From: Brevibacterium luteolum
GTDB taxonomy: Bacteria; Actinomycetota; Actinomycetes; Actinomycetales; Brevibacteriaceae
Length of the DNA stretch: 28,887 bases
Direction: 5' to 3'
Assembly (NCBI RefSeq): GCF_013004595.1
Contig: NZ_JABEMC010000006.1
Location: 124,001 to 152,887, forward strand
The translations under genes and the position numbers were made by a program. The notes below the pieces were generated by a model that was not told the DNA's origin, ran no database searches, and saw only the letters and a list, made by a program, of their open reading frames with translations. Numbering within the stretch: the first letter of the stretch is position 1; each line of letters opens with the position of its first letter. Shown one piece after another: positions 20,581-28,786 of this stretch.

Positions 20581-21237
20581 TCAGTCGGTCATCGTGGCTG
20601 CCAGCTCGGCGAGCTGCTGGGGTGTGCCGGTCATGATCGCGGCGGCGTGTGCCGTGATCGGCTCGATCGGCCAGTCCCACCACCGCACGCGGCGCAGCAG
20701 GTCGACCTCGTCTGGTGTGAAGCGGCTGCGGATGTGCCGGGCCGGGTTGCCGGCCACCACCGCATAGGTTGCGACATCGCCGGTCACCACCGACCTCGCG
20801 CCGATGATCGCGCCGTCGCCGATCGTGACGCCGGGCAGGATCATCGCCTCGCGGCCGATCCACACATCATTGCCGATCGTCGTGTCACCGGCCTGTTCCA
20901 GGCTCGTGAAGGCGTTGAGGGTGTTCGCGGTCCAGTCGCCGCCGAACATCGTGAACGGGTATGTCGACGGGCCGGCCATCGGATGCGTGCCGCCGGGCAT
21001 GAGGAACTGCGCGCCGGGGCCGATCTCGGTGAAACTGCCGATCCGCAGCCGCTGCGGCCCGTAGAGGTAGGCGACATTGGCCTTAGCGAACGGCGGTCGC
21101 CACCCTTCATCGTCGTAGTAGGTGTAGCGGCCGATCTCAATGAGCGGTGAGCTGACGTCGTGTGCCAGGAAGACGACGTTGGTCAGCTCCGGCCGGGTCG
21201 TCGGGGTGCGCGCGTGGGCGTCGGGGATGCCAGTCAT
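20581..21237 (-). CDS. vat: Vat/CatB-type xenobiotic O-acetyltransferase, most similar in motifs to streptogramin A acetyltransferases
   Basis: IEIGRYTYYDD, catalytic-His region MPGGTHPMAGPSTYPFTMFGGDW, hexapeptide repeats GDTTIGNDVWIG..ILPGVTIGDGAIIGARSVVT, GNPAR and WWDW. ATG 21237 follows GAGGAG and overlaps the upstream stop. 218 aa. The symbol is family-level only. Confidence 0.85.
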   Translation of the reverse strand: MTGIPDAHARTPTTRPELTNVVFLAHDVSSPLIEIGRYTYYDDEGWRPPFAKANVAYLYGPQRLRIGSFTEIGPGAQFLMPGGTHPMAGPSTYPFTMFGGDWTANTLNAFTSLEQAGDTTIGNDVWIGREAMILPGVTIGDGAIIGARSVVTGDVATYAVVAGNPARHIRSRFTPDEVDLLRRVRWWDWPIEPITAHAAAIMTGTPQQLAELAATMTD

Positions 21238-21440
21238 GGGTTCTCCTCTGATTCGGGCGGGTCGATGCGGTGCAGGCCGGAGGTATCGAGCTCCAGCCAG
21301 GTGTCGAGCTGGCAGCGGGCGAGGAAGGCGCCGTCGTGGCTGACGATGATGAGCCTGCCGCGATAGGACTCCAGCGCGGAGACGAGGGCGTCGACGCTGG
21401 AGAGGTCGAGGCTGTTGGTCGGTTCGTCGATCAAGCTCAA
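21234..21440 (-). pseudogene. 3' remnant of an ABC-F family ATPase
   Basis: LIDEPTNSLDLSSVDALVSALESYRGRLIIVSHDGAFL is the second-NBD Walker B/H-loop region of ABC-F proteins. Similarity ends near 21435-21445, just before the recombinase start. Confidence 0.8.
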
Positions 21441-21467
21441 GGGGCAGAGGGAAGGCAGACACACCTG

Positions 21468-23052
21468 ATGTCCATGAACACCACCACGACAACGAACACC
21501 AACACGACCACTACGAACAGGCTCTTGGAGCTACCACAGCTCACGCCGGAGCTGCGGGCCGCAGTCGAGCGGCTGCGCGAAATGGCCGGAGAGAACTGGA
21601 CCGCTTCGATCCTCTATGGCCGGGCCTCCCAGGACCGGCACAAGCTGATGCGCTCGATCGATGACCAGCTCACCGACATGGTCGGCTGGTGCCTGCCGAT
21701 CGAATGGTACCCAGAGGCGATCGTTCGCGACGCTGACCGGTCGGCCTCTCAGTGGCGCAGGCGGGAACGCGAAGGCTTCGACGAGGCCATGGCCTTGATC
21801 GAGTCCCGCAAGTACGGCGGCTTCGCCTCCTGGGAGCCCTCGCGTGCCGGGCGCGATATGGAGGTCTACGTGCAGTTGCGCAAGGCCTGCCAGCGCGCCG
21901 GAGTCCTCTACCTCACCCACGGCAGGGTGTACGACTTCTCCCGCTCCGATGACACGTTCATGATGGGCTTCGAGTTCCTCCGCGCCGAGGCCGATGCGAA
22001 CACGATGCGGGAGCGGCAGTTGCGCACGGCCAAGATCAACGCGGACAAGGGCCGCCCCCACGGTCGTCTCCCGTACGGGTACCGGCGGGTCTACGACCAG
22101 CACACCGGTGTCCTACTGCGCCAGGAACCCGACCCCCACACCGGGCAGATCGTCCGCGATGCCGCCCGTGACGTGCTCGCGGGTAAGAGCATGTACTCGA
22201 TCGCGATGCGGTTGCAGGATGCCGGGGAGCCCACACCGAAGAAGCCGTGGGCCGAGAGTCCCCGCGGCTGGGATACCTACACCGTCCGCCAGGTGCTCCA
22301 GAACCCCACCATCGCCGGCAAGCGCGTCTACCGTGGCGAGGTTATCGGGGATGCGCAGTGGGAGCCGCTGATCGACTGGGAGGACTTCCAGAAGATCCAG
22401 CGCCTCTTCGCCGATCCCGGTCGTCTGGTCAAGGGCGGGGGCGGGATGGCCGCGAAGACGCTCATGGTCCACATCGCCCGCTTCCACTACTGCGGCCGCC
22501 CTTTGAAGCGGGCCACGATGCGGAAGAAGGAAAGGACTCCTGCGGTGAAGTACCAGTGCCAGTTCCGGGGGTGCTACAAGACGATGATCTCCCAGCCGGG
22601 CCTGGACGCCTATGTCGAGCAGGTCGTGCTCGAGTGGTTCCAGAACCCGACCAACCTCGCCTGGCTCACCGGCGACGACGACGGCGATTGGCTCAAGGTT
22701 GCCGAAGCCGCCGAACAGAAGCGGGCGGCCTTGCAGGCCCGGCTGGACGAGGTCATCGCCCAGTATGCGGTCGGGAGTCTGAACCTCGACACGCTGACCA
22801 GCTGGAAGCCGCGTTGCGGCCCCAGATCGCCGAGGCCGAGCAGGCGCTCATCCCCCCCCCCGGTGACCGAACGAACGCGTCCGCGCTCTCGTCACCGCCG
22901 AGGATGTGCCCACCGCGTGGGCGCGCTTGCCGTTGGCGGAGCGGAGGAAGATCATCAAGGCCACGTTCAACGTGCGCATCCAGCAGACGAAGAACCGGGG
23001 CCAGAACGCGTTCGAGCCCGAGCGGGTACTCATCGAGCCCCGCGCCCTCTAA
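21468..23052 (+). pseudogene. Large serine recombinase/integrase with a frameshifted C-terminus
   Basis: Catalytic LYGRASQD, SASQW, WEPSRAGR, GRPHGRLPYGY, VRQVLQNPTIAG and WEPLI motifs, then a zinc-ribbon region and coiled coil. The frame must shift near 22800, in the C-run at about 22852-22861 and near 22870 to read LEAALRPQIAEAEQALIPP-VT-ERVRALVTAEDVPTAWARLPLAERRKIIKATFNVRI...ERVLIEPRAL-TAA (23050-23052). Confidence 0.88.
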
Positions 23053-23096
23053 AGGACGCGAGGCTCGATGCCGGACCGGTCAGAGTACCGGACGGG

Positions 23097-23297
23097 TCAG
23101 GAGGCGCCGCCGCGGAGTTGGTGACGGATCATCTCGGCCTGCTCGACACTCATAGGCGGGAACCGGCAGGCCGTGGACTTCGCGGCCTGCCGGATCGCCT
23201 CCCGGTCGGTCTCGGTCAGTGCCTCGTCGTCGATCGCGAGACGAGGTTTCGTTGTGGGGCTGTTGGTCTGGGTGTGGGATGCCGGCGCGCTGCTCAT
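23097..23297 (-). CDS. Small hypothetical protein (66 aa) convergent on the recombinase
   Basis: MSSAPASHTQTNSPTTKPRLAIDDEALTETDREAIRQAAKSTACRFPPMSVEQAEMIRHQLRGGAS. It fills the gap, has plausible codon usage and a helical-looking C-terminal half. No family recognised. Confidence 0.5.
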   Translation of the reverse strand: MSSAPASHTQTNSPTTKPRLAIDDEALTETDREAIRQAAKSTACRFPPMSVEQAEMIRHQLRGGAS

Positions 23298-23340
23298 ATC
23301 CGACAGGTACGCTCTTGCACCCGCGGCCAGAAGAAGGCGA

Positions 23341-23388
23341 CCGCTACATCTAGCCATCTCCGCCGATTCGAATCACTATATCTAGATC
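23341..23388. promoter_or_regulatory. Tandem NrdR-box-like motifs
   Basis: ccgCTACATCTAGcca (23341-23356) and tcaCTATATCTAGatc (23373-23388) have cores exactly 32 bp apart and resemble the NrdR consensus acaCwAtATaTwGtg. A minus-strand TATAGT -10-like hexamer lies inside the second box. Confidence 0.5.
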
Positions 23389-23545: not shown

Positions 23546-24244
23546 TTACCGGGTCTCTCCGGCGGCTGCGGGAATGAGACCCGCGCTCCGCGAGTCAAGG
23601 TAATCACGTGCATGCTGCTGACCGGTGTCGAGGAGCTTTCGACTGTCGGAGATGCCGAGGTTGTCCAGCATTTGCAGCCATGCTTGCTCCACGCGATGCC
23701 CGAGCTTGCTGAGTGAGCCAAGCCGGTCAGCGAGCTGGTAGGTTCCGTAGAGGACCGAGATCATCATCCAGGCTTCGTCGTCGAGGTCGATGTCCTGAGC
23801 GATCTGGCCAGCTTCCTGCGCTCGTATCAGCTGGCGCTTCACAAGCGTCATCCACGTCGTACAGGGCTGGAAGTCTCCGCCATCGGGTGCGGTCCGGTCG
23901 CCTTCCAGGGCCATTGCTGCCTGAAAAATGGACATGTTCTTCTCATCGGTGATGACGATGAACACCGTCGCAACCAAGGCTTCAAGACCCGAAACTCCTC
24001 GGCGTTCGAGTCCTTCCGCGCAGGTATTGAGCAACTGGTCCTGGCGAGACAGGACCGCGTGGGCGATGTCGGCCTTGGCCGGGAAGTGGTAGGTGATGAA
24101 GTTTGGGGTGCTCTTGCCGAGCACCTTGAGGATGCCAGTGTGGGTGGTTCCTCCGTAGCCGTTGCGCGCGAACTCACCCGCTGCGGCGCTGACGATCAGA
24201 TCACGAGTTGCAGACGAACGCGACTGTCGAGTCCGCATCGGCAT
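23546..24244 (-). CDS. TetR-family regulator, ScbR/ArpA (autoregulator receptor)-like
   Basis: RQSRSSATRDLIVSAAAGEFARNGYGGTT..ILKV...YHFPAKADIAHAV parallels the ScbR N-terminus (Q.R...TR..I..AA..F...GY..T...IL). The C-domain has FQPCTTW..L...L.RAQEAGQI, with Trp at the position conserved in gamma-butyrolactone receptors. Confidence 0.8.
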   Translation of the reverse strand: MPMRTRQSRSSATRDLIVSAAAGEFARNGYGGTTHTGILKVLGKSTPNFITYHFPAKADIAHAVLSRQDQLLNTCAEGLERRGVSGLEALVATVFIVITDEKNMSIFQAAMALEGDRTAPDGGDFQPCTTWMTLVKRQLIRAQEAGQIAQDIDLDDEAWMMISVLYGTYQLADRLGSLSKLGHRVEQAWLQMLDNLGISDSRKLLDTGQQHARDYLDSRSAGLIPAAAGETR

Positions 24245-24549
24245 CCGCTCCTTCCCGCTTCATCGATCGCTTCCGGCCGTCGTCCAGTCTACCCTTCCCG
24301 TTCCCCACGCACTTCAATCGCGAGCGAGCACGGCCACCTGATCGCAGCTCTGCCGGAGGCTCACGCGCACGCAGGAAATGGGCGGGTGACCAACGTCACT
24401 CCTATCTCACCACCGACGGTCCGACAAGGCTTGCGGAGGGCTGTCTCGCACCAGGTGCGACCAGCACCTTCACGGCTCCCGCTTCGTCGAACACCACCAG
24501 CTGCCACCCGGCGCCATGCACTCGACGGCAACAACGTTGTGCCACAGAG

Positions 24550-24580
24550 TTTAGATGCGCGTCTAAATCGGTGTTAGGCT
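24550..24580 (+). promoter_or_regulatory. 18-bp palindromic operator overlapping the putative ACP-operon promoter
   Basis: TTTAGATGCGCGTCTAAA (24550-24567) is one mismatch from a perfect dyad. TAGGCT -10-like hexamer at 24575-24580, ACP ATG at 24655. Confidence 0.6.
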
Positions 24581-24654
24581 ACTTCTCGGCCCGGCTGGGG
24601 TCCTGCGACACGTGCCGGGTTTCTCCTCATTGGAACAAAGAAAGACGGACAACC

Positions 24655-24936
24655 ATGCCTCATGTGAATGTGACGGAAGAGAAGCTGCGCTCGGTCGTCT
24701 TCGAGATTCTCGACGATGCCTCCGGTGTGGAGAACGCCGATCTCAACTCGAATCTCGACGACGTTGGCGTGGACTCTCTCGGTCTGACCGAGTTGATCGT
24801 CGAGATCGAGACTCGTCTCGACCTCGGCGAAGAACTCGACAGCAAGCTCAACGGCCTTGATCGCACCGGAATTCTCGGCACGCTCATCGAGCACCTCCAT
24901 GGCGTCATCAACTCCCTGCCAGCCCCGACCAGCTGA
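24655..24936 (+). CDS. Acyl carrier protein (93 aa)
   Basis: Small acidic protein with the phosphopantetheine motif LDDVGVDSLGLTELIVEIETRL. ATG 24655 follows a purine-rich stretch. The ORF-track start at 24208 is over-extended. Confidence 0.88.
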   Translation: MPHVNVTEEKLRSVVFEILDDASGVENADLNSNLDDVGVDSLGLTELIVEIETRLDLGEELDSKLNGLDRTGILGTLIEHLHGVINSLPAPTS

Positions 24937-24971
24937 GCACCGGCAGAAACCACGACAAGGACAGATGACTC

Positions 24972-26159
24972 ATGACTGACACCCTTCTTGACAGCCCGAT
25001 CGCCGGGGAATTCGCCGCCTGGGAGAACGAAGGAGTTTCCCCGTTCCTCCCCACGGTCGAATCCAACACCGGAAACCGAGTCCGCATGAACGGCCGCGAT
25101 GGCGTGCTCATGTTCGGCTCGTGCGACTAACTCGGACTCTCCCAGAATCCCGCGGTCGCCGAGGCATCGATCCAGGCGATCCGGCGTTTCGGAACGAACA
25201 CCTACGGCGCACAGGCCCTGTGCGGACACACCGTCCTCCACGAGGACATCGAGAATCGTCTCGCACGCCTCCACGACAAGGACGCCGCGCTCCTGTTCCC
25301 CTCGGGCATGTCGGCCAACCTCGCCGTGCTCACCAGCCTGGCCGGTCCCGAGGACGTGATCATCAACGACCGGCTCAACCACGTCTCGATCTTCATGGGC
25401 GCCCGCCTCTCCGGCGCGAAAGTCCGTACGTACCAGCACAACGACATGCGCCGCCTCGAAGCCATCCTGTCCTCGACGACAGACAAGCGACGACGCATCA
25501 TCGTCACCGACGGCTTGTTCTCCGCCGACGGTGACCTCGCGCCCCTGGACACGATCACCGGCTTGGCCGAGACCTACGACGCGATGGTCGTCGTGGACGA
25601 AGCCCACTCCTTCGGCTGCCTTGGCCCGCGTGGACTGGGCGCAGCCGATCACTTCGGGGTGCTCGACAAAGTCGACGTGATCGTCGGAACCATGAGCAAA
25701 GCCATCGGCAGCACCGGAGGCTTCGTCGTCACCAGCCATGACATCCAGTTGCTGCTGCGAACCACCGCCCCCTCGTACACGAGTTCACGAGGTGCGTCCC
25801 CCGCCGTGGCCGGAGCCACCCTGAAAGCTCTGGAGATCATCGAGCACGACGGACCTGAACTGAGAGCCAGACTCGCCGAGAACGTCAAGTACATCTCGTC
25901 GAGACTGCGTGTGGAGGGTATCGACCTGGCCGACACGTCCAGCCAGGTCCTTCCGGTCATGATCGGATCCGAGGACACGACGATCCGGGTCGCACACTGG
26001 CTCATCGAGCACGGAGTGTTCGCTGCCGCGTTCACGTTCCCCAATGTCCCCAGAGGCAAGGGGCGCCTGCGAATCGGAGTCACCGCCGCCCATACCCGCG
26101 CTGAATGCGACGAACTCATCGACAGGCTGCTCCAGGCACGGGAGGACTACCCGTTCTAA
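24972..26159 (+). pseudogene. PLP-dependent alpha-oxoamine synthase (BioF/SPT/Kbl/CqsA family) with one in-frame nonsense codon
   Basis: One frame from ATG 24972 reads ...MFGSCD*LGLSQNP; TAA 25128-25130 replaces the Tyr of the DYLGL motif. It continues LFPSGMSAN, DRLNHVSI, TDGLFSADGD, VDEAHS, GTMSKAIG (PLP lysine), VPRGKGRLR and HT. Full length would be 395 aa. Confidence 0.9.
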
Positions 26160-27157
26160 ATGAGTGACAAGACCAGGCCCACCTCGCTAACCCCCATGGA
26201 CACTCATCCTGCCCCGATGGCCGCCCGGTCCGGACCGGCTGGATTCTCGCGGCCATCGCCACTGCTTATCTTGTCGTGATGATGGACTACTCCATCATCA
26301 ATGTGGCGTTGCAGACCATCCAGGAAGACTTCGACGCCTCGAACGCGCAGATGCAATGGATGGTCAGCGGATACGAGATCTTTTACGCCGCACTACTCCT
26401 GCCCGCCGGATTCCTCGCCGATCGGTACGGACGCAACCGCGTGCTCATCACCGGTCTGCTCGTATTCCTCCTCGGCTCCGGCCTCATGGCCACAGCGGCC
26501 TCGGCCAACCAGATCATCGTCTGGCGAGTCCTCATGGGCATCGGCGGAGCCGTGGTCCCAGCGACCACGCTCGCGATCATCAAGCACATCTTCCCCGCGG
26601 CCAAACAGGCACGGGCCATGGGCGTGTGGTCGGCAGTCGGCGGGGCGTCTGTCGCGGTCGGTCCCATCCTTGGCGGGCTCCTGGTCCAGTTCTTCCCCTG
26701 GTGGTCCATCTTCCTCATCAATGTGCCCATCGTTGCCGTCTTCCTCATCGTCATCGCGAAGGCCACGCCCGAGTCCAAGACCCCCACCGGGAACAGGCTC
26801 GATGTCATCGGCATCGTTCTCTCCGCGGCCGCTGTCGCAGCGCTGACCTTCGGTCTGATCCGCGGCGGCGAGACTGCTCAATGGGTGGGATGGGATACGG
26901 CCGGGATGATCACACTCGGCGTGCTCCTGCTCATCGTCCTGGTGATCGTCGAACGGCACCGGCTCGCCCCGATGCTCGATGTCAGTCTGTTGCGGCACCG
27001 GGCGTTTGCCACAGGCACCATGTCGATCTCCCTGGCCTACTTCGCATTGACCGGCGGCACGTTCCTGCTCGTGTTCTATATCCAGCTCATCCGTGGACAA
27101 ACACCCCTCGAACTAGGTGTACTGACCGGACACGTTGATCGACGGTCAGGAGCTTGA
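26160..27157 (+). pseudogene. DHA2 (14-TMS, EmrB/QacA-like) MFS exporter, 5' frameshift and 3' truncation
   Basis: ATG 26160 abuts the synthase stop but is out of frame with WILAAIATAYLVVMMDYSIINVAL, QWMVSGY, GFLADRYGRNR, WRVLMGIGGA, GPILGG and WWSIFLINVP. Similarity stops at about 27120 (IQLIRGQTPLELG), leaving the last TM segments missing. Confidence 0.85.
27118..27145. mobile_element. Possible IS481-family-like terminal inverted repeat at the MFS breakpoint
   Basis: TGTACTGACCGGACACGTTGATCGACG begins exactly where MFS similarity ends. It starts with TGT as IS481-family ends do. No partner end or transposase is seen in the window. Confidence 0.4.
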
Positions 27158-27184
27158 CCTTGACGCAGCGTCAATGTTTAGCGT
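27154..27184 (+). promoter_or_regulatory. MerR/TipA-type promoter with 19-bp spacer and dyad operator
   Basis: -35 TTGACC (27154-27159), perfect dyad TTGACGC-A-GCGTCAA (27160-27174), -10 TAGCGT (27179-27184). The spacer is 19 bp and the ATG follows 7 nt later at 27192. Confidence 0.85.
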
Positions 27185-27191
27185 CGCGAGC

Positions 27192-28097
27192 ATGACAGTG
27201 ACGATGATTGACAGTGCCGCTGGGATGCGGGCGATGGTGAGCAGTTCTCCGGAGCAGTGGAAGGACGCAGCTCGCAGACTGTGGGAGCCGATGGCGGGGA
27301 TGTACTTCTTCATTCCCGGTGGACCTGATCTGGCCGCGGTTCACAGCCAGAACTTCGGTTTCAGACCCTCCGTAGCGGCAGACAAGATCCTCGGCGCGGT
27401 CGACGCTTTGGAACGCGCCGATGCTTGGGGCCGTGTCGAGCGAGCGCTCGAAACGGGGCTGCGGGAGCTGAGTGCCGCCGATCCGACTGTGGCGATGCCT
27501 GACCTGAAGGTGTTGCTCGTGCTCGGGGATCCCACCAACAAGCACTTCATGGATGAGATCCGCGGCCTGTCGGCCTTCGGTGGGATCAGCGGGTACATCG
27601 CCATCACGATCTGGCCCACCGACGAGGTTCTGGCGCGGTTGGAGGGCATCGCCCTGCACGAGCTCCACCACAATGTGCGGTACTCGCCAAGACATGTGGT
27701 GTGGAACCCGCAGACGGTGACGGTTGGTGAGCACGTGGTGGCTGAGGGTCTCGCGGACCTGTTCGCCGCCGACATGGTGGGCGAGCAGGGATTCACGCAC
27801 TTCGTCAGCGACCAGACCCGTACCAGTGACGAGGTGCTGCGCCGCGTTGTGGAGGGCTTGGACGTGACTGGCATGCAGGATTTCGCGGCTTGGGTGTTGG
27901 GCGATCCGAGCGCTCGCCTGTTCGGCGCGACACCGGTCGGGCTGTCCACCGGCGCTGGTTACGCTGCCGGGGCTCGCATCGTGTCCGCCTTTCTGGAGGC
28001 CACCGGACAGTCACCCGCCAGGGCTGTGGCCACGCCCGCCTCCGAGATCCTGGCCGTGGCACTGCCACAGTTGGGTCTGACAATGCCTGCCCGCTGA
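27192..28097 (+). CDS. DUF2268-like putative Zn-dependent peptidase
   Basis: HExxH in ALHELHHNVR, downstream VVAEGLADLFA (third ligand) and GAGYAAG..IV..FL. Start placed at ATG 27192 from promoter geometry. Confidence 0.8.
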   Translation: MTVTMIDSAAGMRAMVSSSPEQWKDAARRLWEPMAGMYFFIPGGPDLAAVHSQNFGFRPSVAADKILGAVDALERADAWGRVERALETGLRELSAADPTVAMPDLKVLLVLGDPTNKHFMDEIRGLSAFGGISGYIAITIWPTDEVLARLEGIALHELHHNVRYSPRHVVWNPQTVTVGEHVVAEGLADLFAADMVGEQGFTHFVSDQTRTSDEVLRRVVEGLDVTGMQDFAAWVLGDPSARLFGATPVGLSTGAGYAAGARIVSAFLEATGQSPARAVATPASEILAVALPQLGLTMPAR

Positions 28098-28111
28098 CGA
28101 GAGAGGCCGAG

Positions 28112-28786
28112 ATGGTGGAGTGGACCGTCCAAGAACTCGCTGACCGCGCCGGCATCAGCGCCAGGACATTGCGTCACTATCACCAGATCGGCCTGCTCGT
28201 CCCGGACCGGATCGGTGCGAACGGCTACCGCTACTACGGACCCGTCGCCGTGGCACGCCTGCAACGCATCCTGCTCCTGCGTGAAGCTGGCCTGGCTTTG
28301 AGTGCGATCAGCGAAGCACTGGCAAGTGACGCGAACCCAGGAGACGAGATCACCGCCCTCGAGGCGCACCTGACACACCTCGAGCACGAGCGGGAAGCAC
28401 TGGGACGTCGTATCGCGTCCGTCGAGCACACAGTGGCGATGAGACGCGAGGGGCGCCAGCCGCGGATGGACATGATGCTCGAAGGCTTCAACGACCGCTA
28501 CGAGGCTGAGGTGACCCAACGATGGGGACGCGTGGTCTTCGAGCAGTCCAACCGGTGGTGGCATGCCAAGAGCCTCACCCAGCAGCGCCAGTTCCAAGCC
28601 GATGCCGAGCGACTCTTGGCGCGGTGGGGCGAACTTCACCAGTCGGGTGTCTCCCCATTCTGCGACCCGGCCCAACAGCACGCAGCCGCCCACGCCGCCT
28701 GGTTCGCCCAGATCCCCGGGACGCCCGGGCATGCCGGCGATCTGGACAAGACCCGCGCCATGAACCGTCCTGGGTTTCGTTCCTAG
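28112..28786 (+). pseudogene. MerR-family regulator, TipA-like, C-terminus interrupted by an IS at 28761
   Basis: WTVQELADRAGISARTLRHYHQIGLL.P...NGYRYY...RLQRILLLREAGLALSAI is a MerR HTH. FNDRYEAEVTQRWG and P....AQQHAAAHAAW resemble TipAS. ATG follows GAGAGG. The last 8 codons come from the IS end. Confidence 0.85.

Follow-up and report, generated by a model that had tools for sequence, protein, structure and literature searches.

A rare cassette of a TetR-family repressor, an acyl carrier protein, an alpha-oxoamine synthase and an exporter, decayed in Brevibacterium luteolum, that may make, export and sense an acyl-aminoketone

In the butyrolactone, furan and butenolide hormone systems of Streptomyces (ScbA–ScbR, AfsA–ArpA, AvaR1, CprB, TylP) the receptor gene is divergent from the synthase gene and a palindrome lies in the intergenic region. 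A cassette that we analysed in Brevibacterium luteolum (genome G000; contig NZ_JABEMC010000006.1, positions 124,001 to 152,887, a stretch of 28,887 nucleotides called the window below) has the same arrangement and a TetR-family receptor of the same fold and sequence family, but the partner of this receptor is a pyridoxal phosphate (PLP)-dependent alpha-oxoamine synthase (AOS) with an acyl carrier protein (ACP) and a pump. In the four genomes searched (see below) neither AfsA nor a regulon was seen, and the receptor is only 20–31 % identical to known butyrolactone-type members, below the family cut-off; the cassette operator is, in addition, unlike the autoregulatory element (ARE) consensus of butyrolactone receptors. 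Judging from sequence comparison we suggest, with a probability of roughly 0.55, that this is a self-regulating cassette that would make, export and sense an acyl-aminoketone, in the manner of a TetR/efflux feedback loop. The initial annotation, made from the window alone, had proposed that a TetR gene is divergent from tightly coupled genes for an ACP, an AOS and a DHA2 exporter and that a dyad covers the operon promoter, and this layout is confirmed:

24244–23546, minus strand: TetR-family repressor with gamma-butyrolactone-receptor fold, 232 amino acids (230 from the second ATG), intact
24550–24567, no strand: inverted repeat TTTAGATGC/GCGTCTAAA, putative operator, overlapping the −35 of the putative operon promoter
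24572–24580, plus strand: TG-n-TAGGCT, putative extended −10 of the ACP–AOS–exporter operon, conserved in four loci
24655–24936, plus strand: stand-alone ACP, 93 amino acids, DSL motif (Ser41), intact
24972–26159, plus strand: PLP-dependent AOS of an unnamed clade, a pseudogene here (TAA at 25128–25130)
26160–27117, plus strand: DHA2-type (EmrB/QacA-like) major facilitator superfamily (MFS) exporter, with a frameshift close to its 5' end and truncated at 27117 (521 amino acids in the orthologue)

The exporter start at 26160 follows the AOS stop with no gap. The ACP scores 29.7 bits on PP-binding (Pfam cut-off 20.8) and aligns with the ACPs from other loci of the synthase clade, and the best model for the intact 521-residue exporter of Rothia halotolerans (locus L013) is TIGR00711, at 224.8 bits against a cut-off of 230.2.

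Each part of the cassette has described counterparts. TetR/efflux loops and pseudo-receptors (ActR–ActA, ScbR2, JadR2) likewise place an exporter of a biosynthetic unit under TetR control, and release of such a repressor by the product has been described (PMC4909744); compared with the pseudo-receptors, the cassette TetR has a mostly acidic isoelectric point (pI), the whole pathway consists of two genes and an acyl-aminoketone is the predicted product. The nearest named enzymes, by tree and structure, are the bacterial serine palmitoyltransferases (SPT) with an ACP and secondary-metabolite AOS such as SgaB; the ACP lies directly upstream, as it does at the SPT-like loci L178, L179 and L181, and AOS-made sphinganines are known as secondary metabolites (PMC12134224). 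Unlike these enzymes, the cassette AOS belongs to a separate clade (approximately 38–40 % identity) with the motifs GSCDY, GAQ and SADGD, and has no ceramide synthase, reductase or polyketide synthase (PKS) beside it in the cassette. A likeness to CqsA/LqsA quorum sensing, where an AOS would also yield a small molecule derived from an acyl-aminoketone, had been drawn in the initial annotation and is not borne out: CqsA/LqsA gives some of the poorest AOS matches (193 bits against a cut-off of 428; PDB match 109 bits, compared with 268 for SPT), and the cassette has a carrier and a pump and no sensor kinase. Carrier-protein-dependent condensation is shared with the prodiginine AOS (RedN/PigH, RedL), and several loci of the cassette's synthase clade have PigA/RedW-like, FabH-like or PigC/RedH-like neighbours; ACP-fused actinobacterial AOS clusters were the top structural look-alikes in the atlas, which we take as a lead only. 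The cassette enzyme, by contrast, is stand-alone, and no such partner gene lies in the cassette. Receptors of the butyrolactone type, exporters under TetR control, AOS linked to an ACP and AOS that make sphinganines are individually known, as far as the sources cited cover them (PMC12134224, PMC11087976). For a butyrolactone-type receptor joined to an ACP–AOS–pump operon our searches of an open-access library returned no description, in line with the earlier impression that the combination was new.

The best NCBIfam match of the TetR protein is ScbR_bind_reg (NF041196), on which the window protein scores 105 bits and the five members scanned 101–118 bits, against a cut-off of 150. Its best solved relatives, by sequence and by the fold of its model (pLDDT 90), are CprB, 6srn/7ky1 (presumably MmfR), TylP and AvaR1, at 20–26 % identity. 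The top Foldseek and phmmer matches are all butyrolactone-type receptors, and a pocket Trp (W131), aligned with the Trp of known receptors, is invariant in 8/8 sequences. Of the 'ScbR-like receptor' first proposed, the butyrolactone-receptor fold and the pocket Trp therefore stand, but the ScbR family cut-off is missed by 5/5. The pI lies between 5.1 and 6.3 in seven of nine sequences and is 7.0 and 7.8 in the other two; as a tendency, a genuine receptor has an acidic pI and a pseudo-receptor a basic one (PMC7554373), and pseudo-receptors are described as binding antibiotics and as not adjacent to a butyrolactone synthase (PMC4909744). No AfsA partner came to light: PF03756 gave no match in G000, G416, G828 or G864, and in 3/5 other records, used as a positive control, the family was detected in this way. 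From sequence and model together, the TetR protein appears to work like a butyrolactone-type receptor without belonging to a butyrolactone system. A second TetR match in the genus, from G845 (L148:8210–8812; 31 %), was rejected as a cassette member; it is a conventional ScbR-family regulator that, as a control, scored 183 bits on the ScbR model, above the cut-off, and it has a FabH-like gene and an ABC transporter nearby, with no AfsA match in the G845 genome.

Taken alone, the dyad has no significance: when the intergenic region was dinucleotide-shuffled 500 times, 22 % of the results contained an equally good one; it is nevertheless meaningful because it is conserved across four loci. Four loci contain the 16-mer TTAGATGNNCRTCTAA with TG-n-TAG(G/C)CT a few bases after it: those of the window, of G828 (another genome of the genus), of Rothia halotolerans and of G864, a genome from the genus of G416 with its copy at the same chromosomal site as the Rothia locus. 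The dyad has the form ATTAGATG-CC-CATCTAAT in Rothia halotolerans and is perfect (TTAGATGG/CCATCTAA) in G864, the −10-like block is conserved as TGTTAGGCT / TGATAGCCT across the four loci, and dyad and block form the best-conserved part of the intergenic DNA (13–15/20 versus 5–11 upstream). A sigma-70 scan called no promoter in the intergenic DNA; we infer from the conserved block that TG-n-TAGGCT is an extended −10 promoter, in which case the dyad would cover the −35, where a repressor would block transcription.

The AOS scores below the cut-off of every AOS family (bioF 359 of 426 bits, kbl 340 of 460, best SPT model 327 of 640, CqsA-type NF005526 193 of 428), and members of its clade reach 327–361 bits on the best SPT model. 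Relatives at 44–94 % identity occur in Micrococcales, Streptomyces, Lentzea, Micromonospora, Kineosporia, Bacillus and others. An IQ-TREE analysis of 35 of 68 rows (near-duplicates and several unnamed rows having been dropped) places the cassette-type AOS in a clade of their own (100/99) that excludes both KBL (100/100) and the SPT-like enzymes (99/96) and has the SPT-like enzymes as its sister group (91/94), where the labels of the SPT-like and some BioF rows are gene neighbourhoods or source names with no assays behind them. The model of the AOS (pLDDT 93) has a TM score of 0.94 to SPT; its root-mean-square deviation (rmsd) is 1.3–1.7 to SPT structures, including SPTs at only 28 % identity, and 2.0–3.1 to BioF, KBL and ALAS, gaps that may reflect open and closed states. 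Considering that the AOS is nearer to the serine palmitoyltransferases, the sphingoid-like option of the 'acyl-aminoketone or sphingoid-like' product envisaged at first is probably the better one. Across 54 relatives, D209, H212, K243 and R367 are conserved in 54/54 and H137 in 53/54, which we take to be the catalytic residues. The clade is marked by GSCDY (Cys for the usual Asn, 54/54), GAQ and SADGD, and by an invariant Pro24 at the position of the Arg with which BioF and ALAS bind the acid tail. The column equivalent to Val79 of ThAOS, which sets the amino-acid choice (PMC11906848), was identified via the KBL Val and the SPT Ser, and holds Ala in 41, Ser in 12 and Thr in 1 of the 54 sequences, and never the Val of KBL. 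The synthase is distinct from the BioF of the window host, which is encoded in a separate bioB-bioA-bioF-bioD operon and is 33 % identical to the AOS. Since this operon-linked BioF also misses the bioF cut-off (330 bits), that cut-off is a weak test. A search for fused longer synthases, a weak one, gave three distant matches and no fused close relative.

That the four genes are a conserved unit is borne out by Rothia halotolerans, where all are intact and co-linear, and by six TetR/AOS pairs elsewhere. Identity between the Rothia and window copies is 73 % for TetR, 66 % for ACP, 84 % for AOS and 86 % for the exporter (shared part), and since substitutions fall mainly in third codon positions (47/30/162 in the AOS, i.e. 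third position 162 of 239), the cassette genes were apparently under selection until recently. The six pairs come from a protein collection and have equal-sized longest contigs (5093, 5756, 10796, 3276, 3559 and 95811), which is indirect evidence that TetR and AOS are co-located; in the most distant pair the identities are 53 % (TetR) and 64 % (AOS), and the AOS of that pair takes the basal position in the cassette group (97/92). G864 has a TetR (67 %), the perfect dyad, here preceding the pump, and an intact 529-residue exporter (82 %), with no ACP or clade AOS at the locus and no clade AOS across the genome; given the basal position of the distant AOS, this synthase-less copy is best read as a loss. 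G828 retains the TetR (95 %) and the intergenic DNA, followed by a frameshifted ACP fragment and nothing beyond. Of the four loci available as DNA, three no longer have the means of synthesis but still have the repressor, a pattern that costly production would lead one to expect. In G864, a segment (L158:3076–6887) with an HMGL-like enzyme, an ApbA-like reductase, a CGNR zinc finger and an AEC-type transporter lies convergent with the pump; the genes of this segment have G+C at third codon positions (GC3) below that of host genes, and the ApbA-like and CGNR genes occur also at the Rothia locus. The ApbA-like, CGNR and HMGL-like genes were rejected as extra pathway genes, being convergent with the operon and having no close match in G000.

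The cassette is rare. Its TetR was found in 1/68 other genomes of the genus (G828), in 1/70 other genomes from the genus of G416 (G864) and in 0/400 other genomes from the family of G416; a clade synthase was found in 1/400 other genomes of the order (G344, 57 %, with different neighbours) and in 0/400 genomes of the class. A metagenome scan with the TetR alignment gave 126 confirmed stretches, of which 80 were kept, every one a generic, distantly related TetR (E 1e-14 or weaker) and none with a cassette, a DNA search of 40 relatives returned short matches only, and a plasmid collection held TetR matches of approximately 27–30 % at best. The TetR family is small and isolated: it has seven close relatives, and one 50 % cluster matches at 409 bits, whereas the second-best reaches 121.

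The initial annotation had also judged the window copy damaged, correctly: the AOS has an in-frame TAA (25128–25130, codon 53), and the exporter is frameshifted approximately 50 nucleotides after its start and loses homology to the intact orthologue at 27117. Because a sequencing run (X1, which may have been the source of the assembly) agrees with the window at every base and two different truncated AOS alleles of 52 amino acids are on record, we consider the decay real and no mere assembly error; the cut at 27117 is particular to the window lineage, since contigs from runs X3, X4 and X10 continue as exporter-like sequence beyond it. By its sequence, the window genome has a dead synthase and a dead pump, and the repressor and ACP alone remain. 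Intact AOS alleles are P0004 and P0142 (94–95 % to the window) and that of Rothia halotolerans (84 %); by source name, P0142 is an intact AOS of B. luteolum, and a near-identical TetR (P0148) is from B. otitidis. In RNA runs only 5–13 % of sequence words were present.

Beyond the cassette, 32 loci of the synthase clade were compared for genes within 5 kb. A stand-alone ACP or peptidyl carrier protein (PCP) is present in 27/32, as judged with a carrier profile built from 15 stand-alone ACP/PCP sequences, 14 of them out of these loci and most Pfam-confirmed; bioA, bioB, bioD and tdh are near the synthase in 0/32. Most loci have an exporter (EamA, MFS or MMPL), and the regulators at the other loci are LysR, ArsR or two-component. 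The common theme of the clade is a carrier-bound acyl group, condensation and export, with an exchangeable regulator. In actinomycetes, L015, L016, L021 and L022 have LysR, EamA, ACP, FabH (seen in three) and a phosphopantetheinyl transferase (PPTase), and in Bacillus, L012, L017 and L019 are minimal clusters of ACP, AOS, ArsR, EamA and PPTase; both kinds are apparently uncharacterised. At L011, L018, L023, L024, L027, L040 and L149 an adenylation enzyme, a carrier and a PigA/RedW-like dehydrogenase accompany the clade AOS, which suggests a pyrrolyl aminomethyl ketone as the product. The Streptomyces loci L030–L037 and L041 combine a fatty acyl-AMP ligase (FAAL), ACP, clade AOS, a GNAT-like enzyme, a reductase, a fatty-acid hydroxylase and MMPL, with the look of a ceramide-type pathway, and a Thermolongibacillus locus has ACP, a GNAT-like enzyme, dehydrogenases, a reductase and a phosphoenolpyruvate (PEP)-utilising enzyme. 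On pSCL4 of S. clavuligerus the clade locus lies inside a non-ribosomal peptide synthetase (NRPS)/PKS cluster with diaminopropionate-type genes; the pSCL4 paper (PMC2997539) gave no description of it under the terms tried.

As a potential mechanism, we suggest that a host PPTase would prime the ACP and that host type II fatty-acid synthesis would load the acyl chain, as the cassette has no loading enzyme of its own; a FabH homologue is present in the host. The PLP synthase would then condense the acyl group with a small amino acid, Ser or Ala being likelier than Gly alone, with loss of CO2, to give an acyl-aminoketone like 3-keto-sphinganine or, when the chain is a beta-ketoacyl, a pyrrolinone formed by cyclisation. 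This product, a cationic amphiphile, would leave through the proton-driven DHA2 pump. A TetR dimer seated on the dyad across the −35 would be released on binding the product or a close analogue, so that synthesis and export would be induced together, combining positive feedback with self-protection.

Several points weigh against a self-regulating cassette of this kind. It has neither an acyl-loading enzyme nor a PPTase, unlike most clade loci, and the loading step is a guess; the loaders at other clade loci are diverse (FAAL, FabH, or an adenylation enzyme with a PigA/RedW-like dehydrogenase), and the acyl donor thus cannot be read from the clade. The nearest non-cassette synthases (L014, L026, L038) are without an ACP within 5 kb, which makes CoA substrates possible. 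In only one case did the DNA itself show all four genes intact. The deep placement of the synthases beside SPT is moderately supported by the tree, and although they form their own clade there, the approximately unbiased (AU) test did not reject grouping that clade with BioF (p 0.129); the caveat on open and closed states applies to the structural comparison. Two further points bear on the autoinducer form of the proposal, in which the aminoketone would be a true cell-to-cell signal. The exact operator occurs once per genome in G000, G416, G828 and G864, where two-mismatch sites number 3, 1, 5 and 0, the level of a reversed-pattern control, and a butyrolactone-type receptor is present at 1/32 clade loci. 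On sequence grounds a regulon for the TetR is not visible, though a degenerate one may exist. No target beyond the cassette operon is evident, which suits a TetR/efflux feedback loop around a bioactive lipid, built from a protein of the hormone-receptor type.

These last points weaken the initial view of the cassette as an autoinducer module, and we regard it as unlikely that a diffusible aminoketone, or an aza-analogue of a butenolide, acts as a nanomolar density signal in place of the AfsA/butyrolactone pair. The receptor fold matches CprB, TylP and AvaR1 best and retains W131, no AfsA was found, and the divergent arrangement mirrors that of scbA/scbR, all of which would suit such a signal, as would the acidic pI of most members, in the range of genuine receptors (PMC7554373); synthase-less copies could moreover be cheaters or eavesdroppers. 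Yet no regulon to coordinate is visible, the ScbR cut-off is missed throughout and two members have a pI of 7.0 and 7.8, pseudo-receptors with the same fold are described as binding antibiotics (PMC4909744), and elsewhere the clade is paired with other regulator types. G864, where the synthase is missing but receptor, operator and pump persist, seems to fit a loop for export and self-protection at least as well as a signal. We are similarly doubtful of a new actinobacterial class of autoinducer, that is, an N-containing acyl-aminoketone or pyrrolinone made by an ACP-dependent synthase, read by a receptor of butyrolactone lineage and mobile among Micrococcales with synthase-less 'cheater' copies.

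The G864 copy also invites the idea that TetR, operator and pump are a resistance module for an outside compound (host sphingoid bases or a competitor antibiotic), with ACP and AOS as optional cargo that modifies the compound or merely rides along. In the Rothia locus GC3 is lower in the ACP (0.70) and AOS (0.78) than in TetR (0.89) and pump (0.88), and efflux/regulator pairs are reported to confer sphingosine resistance in staphylococci (bioRxiv 10.1101/2020.09.15.297481). We nonetheless argue that this is rather improbable, since the most distant TetRs (53 %) apparently share contigs with a basal synthase, making loss in G864 simpler than gain elsewhere, the AOS stop abuts the pump start, and AOS enzymes are described as irreversible synthases (PMC11906848). 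Very little speaks for an accessory BioF that is served by a pimeloyl carrier of its own and yields a biotin vitamer for export: bioF is indeed the top-scoring NCBIfam model, its cut-off is missed by the host BioF as well and the AU test does not reject the grouping with BioF, but the host has its own biotin operon with a BioF of 33 % identity, bioA, bioB and bioD are absent from all 32 clade neighbourhoods, Pro24 stands in place of the Arg of BioF and ALAS, and Cys replaces the usual Asn in GSCDY. Equally hard to credit is a membrane sphingolipid pathway in which a plain serine palmitoyltransferase feeds ceramide synthesis. Both tree and structure make SPT the closest of the named groups, and more distant clade loci have FAAL, GNAT-like acyltransferase, reductase and hydroxylase genes; against this, the cassette lacks the acyltransferase and reductase, both described as required (PMC11087976), the SPT cut-offs are missed, the clade stands outside the SPT group, and a repressor–pump pair suits a released compound.

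Regarding its genomic setting, the G+C content falls from approximately 0.68–0.70 outside to 0.61–0.64 across the cassette. The cassette appears to be horizontally moving cargo, since its sites are unrelated in G000, in G828 (beside a zeta-toxin-family gene) and in Rothia (flanked by sulP/AHSA1 genes and, on the other side, the nrd operon). Its neighbours in the window are:

20584–21240, minus strand: Vat/CatB-like hexapeptide acetyltransferase (Vat family, 192 bits against a cut-off of 300), left of the recombinase
21234–21404, minus strand: C-terminal fragment of an ABC-F-like ATPase, cut by the left edge of the recombinase module
21405–23387, no strand: large serine recombinase (broken; Pfam Resolvase and Recombinase) and a small divergent open reading frame, head of an integrative element adjoining the cassette
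27135–28786, plus strand: DUF2268 gene and MerR/TipAS regulator, right of the cassette

The recombinase module, which contains a short inverted repeat at approximately 23031–23070, has DNA matches of 86–92 % identity in 8/68 other genomes of the genus, at other sites, and the cassette TetR is absent from all eight. The remainder of the ABC-F-like ATPase was not found in the window genome. On the right, the MerR/TipAS gene is shortened at a repeated contig end whose repeat is present on other contigs too; the DUF2268 and MerR/TipAS genes have 65–70 % matches in 10/68 genomes of the genus, and their arrival would account for the cut in the exporter at 27117.

Finally, although the biological weight of the finding is limited, the window copy being a pseudogene cluster and the cassette rare, one intact natural unit of 4 kb holds a two-gene pathway, a pump and a matching receptor–operator pair, so that a direct route to product and ligand is open, in which the receptor would be its own biosensor. 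Identification of the product would give a first function to a widespread, unnamed clade of carrier-linked AOS (Actinomycetota, Bacillota and others). Moreover, it would tell whether a receptor of the butyrolactone type can come to serve an aminoketone ligand, a question that concerns the many orphan receptors of this family.

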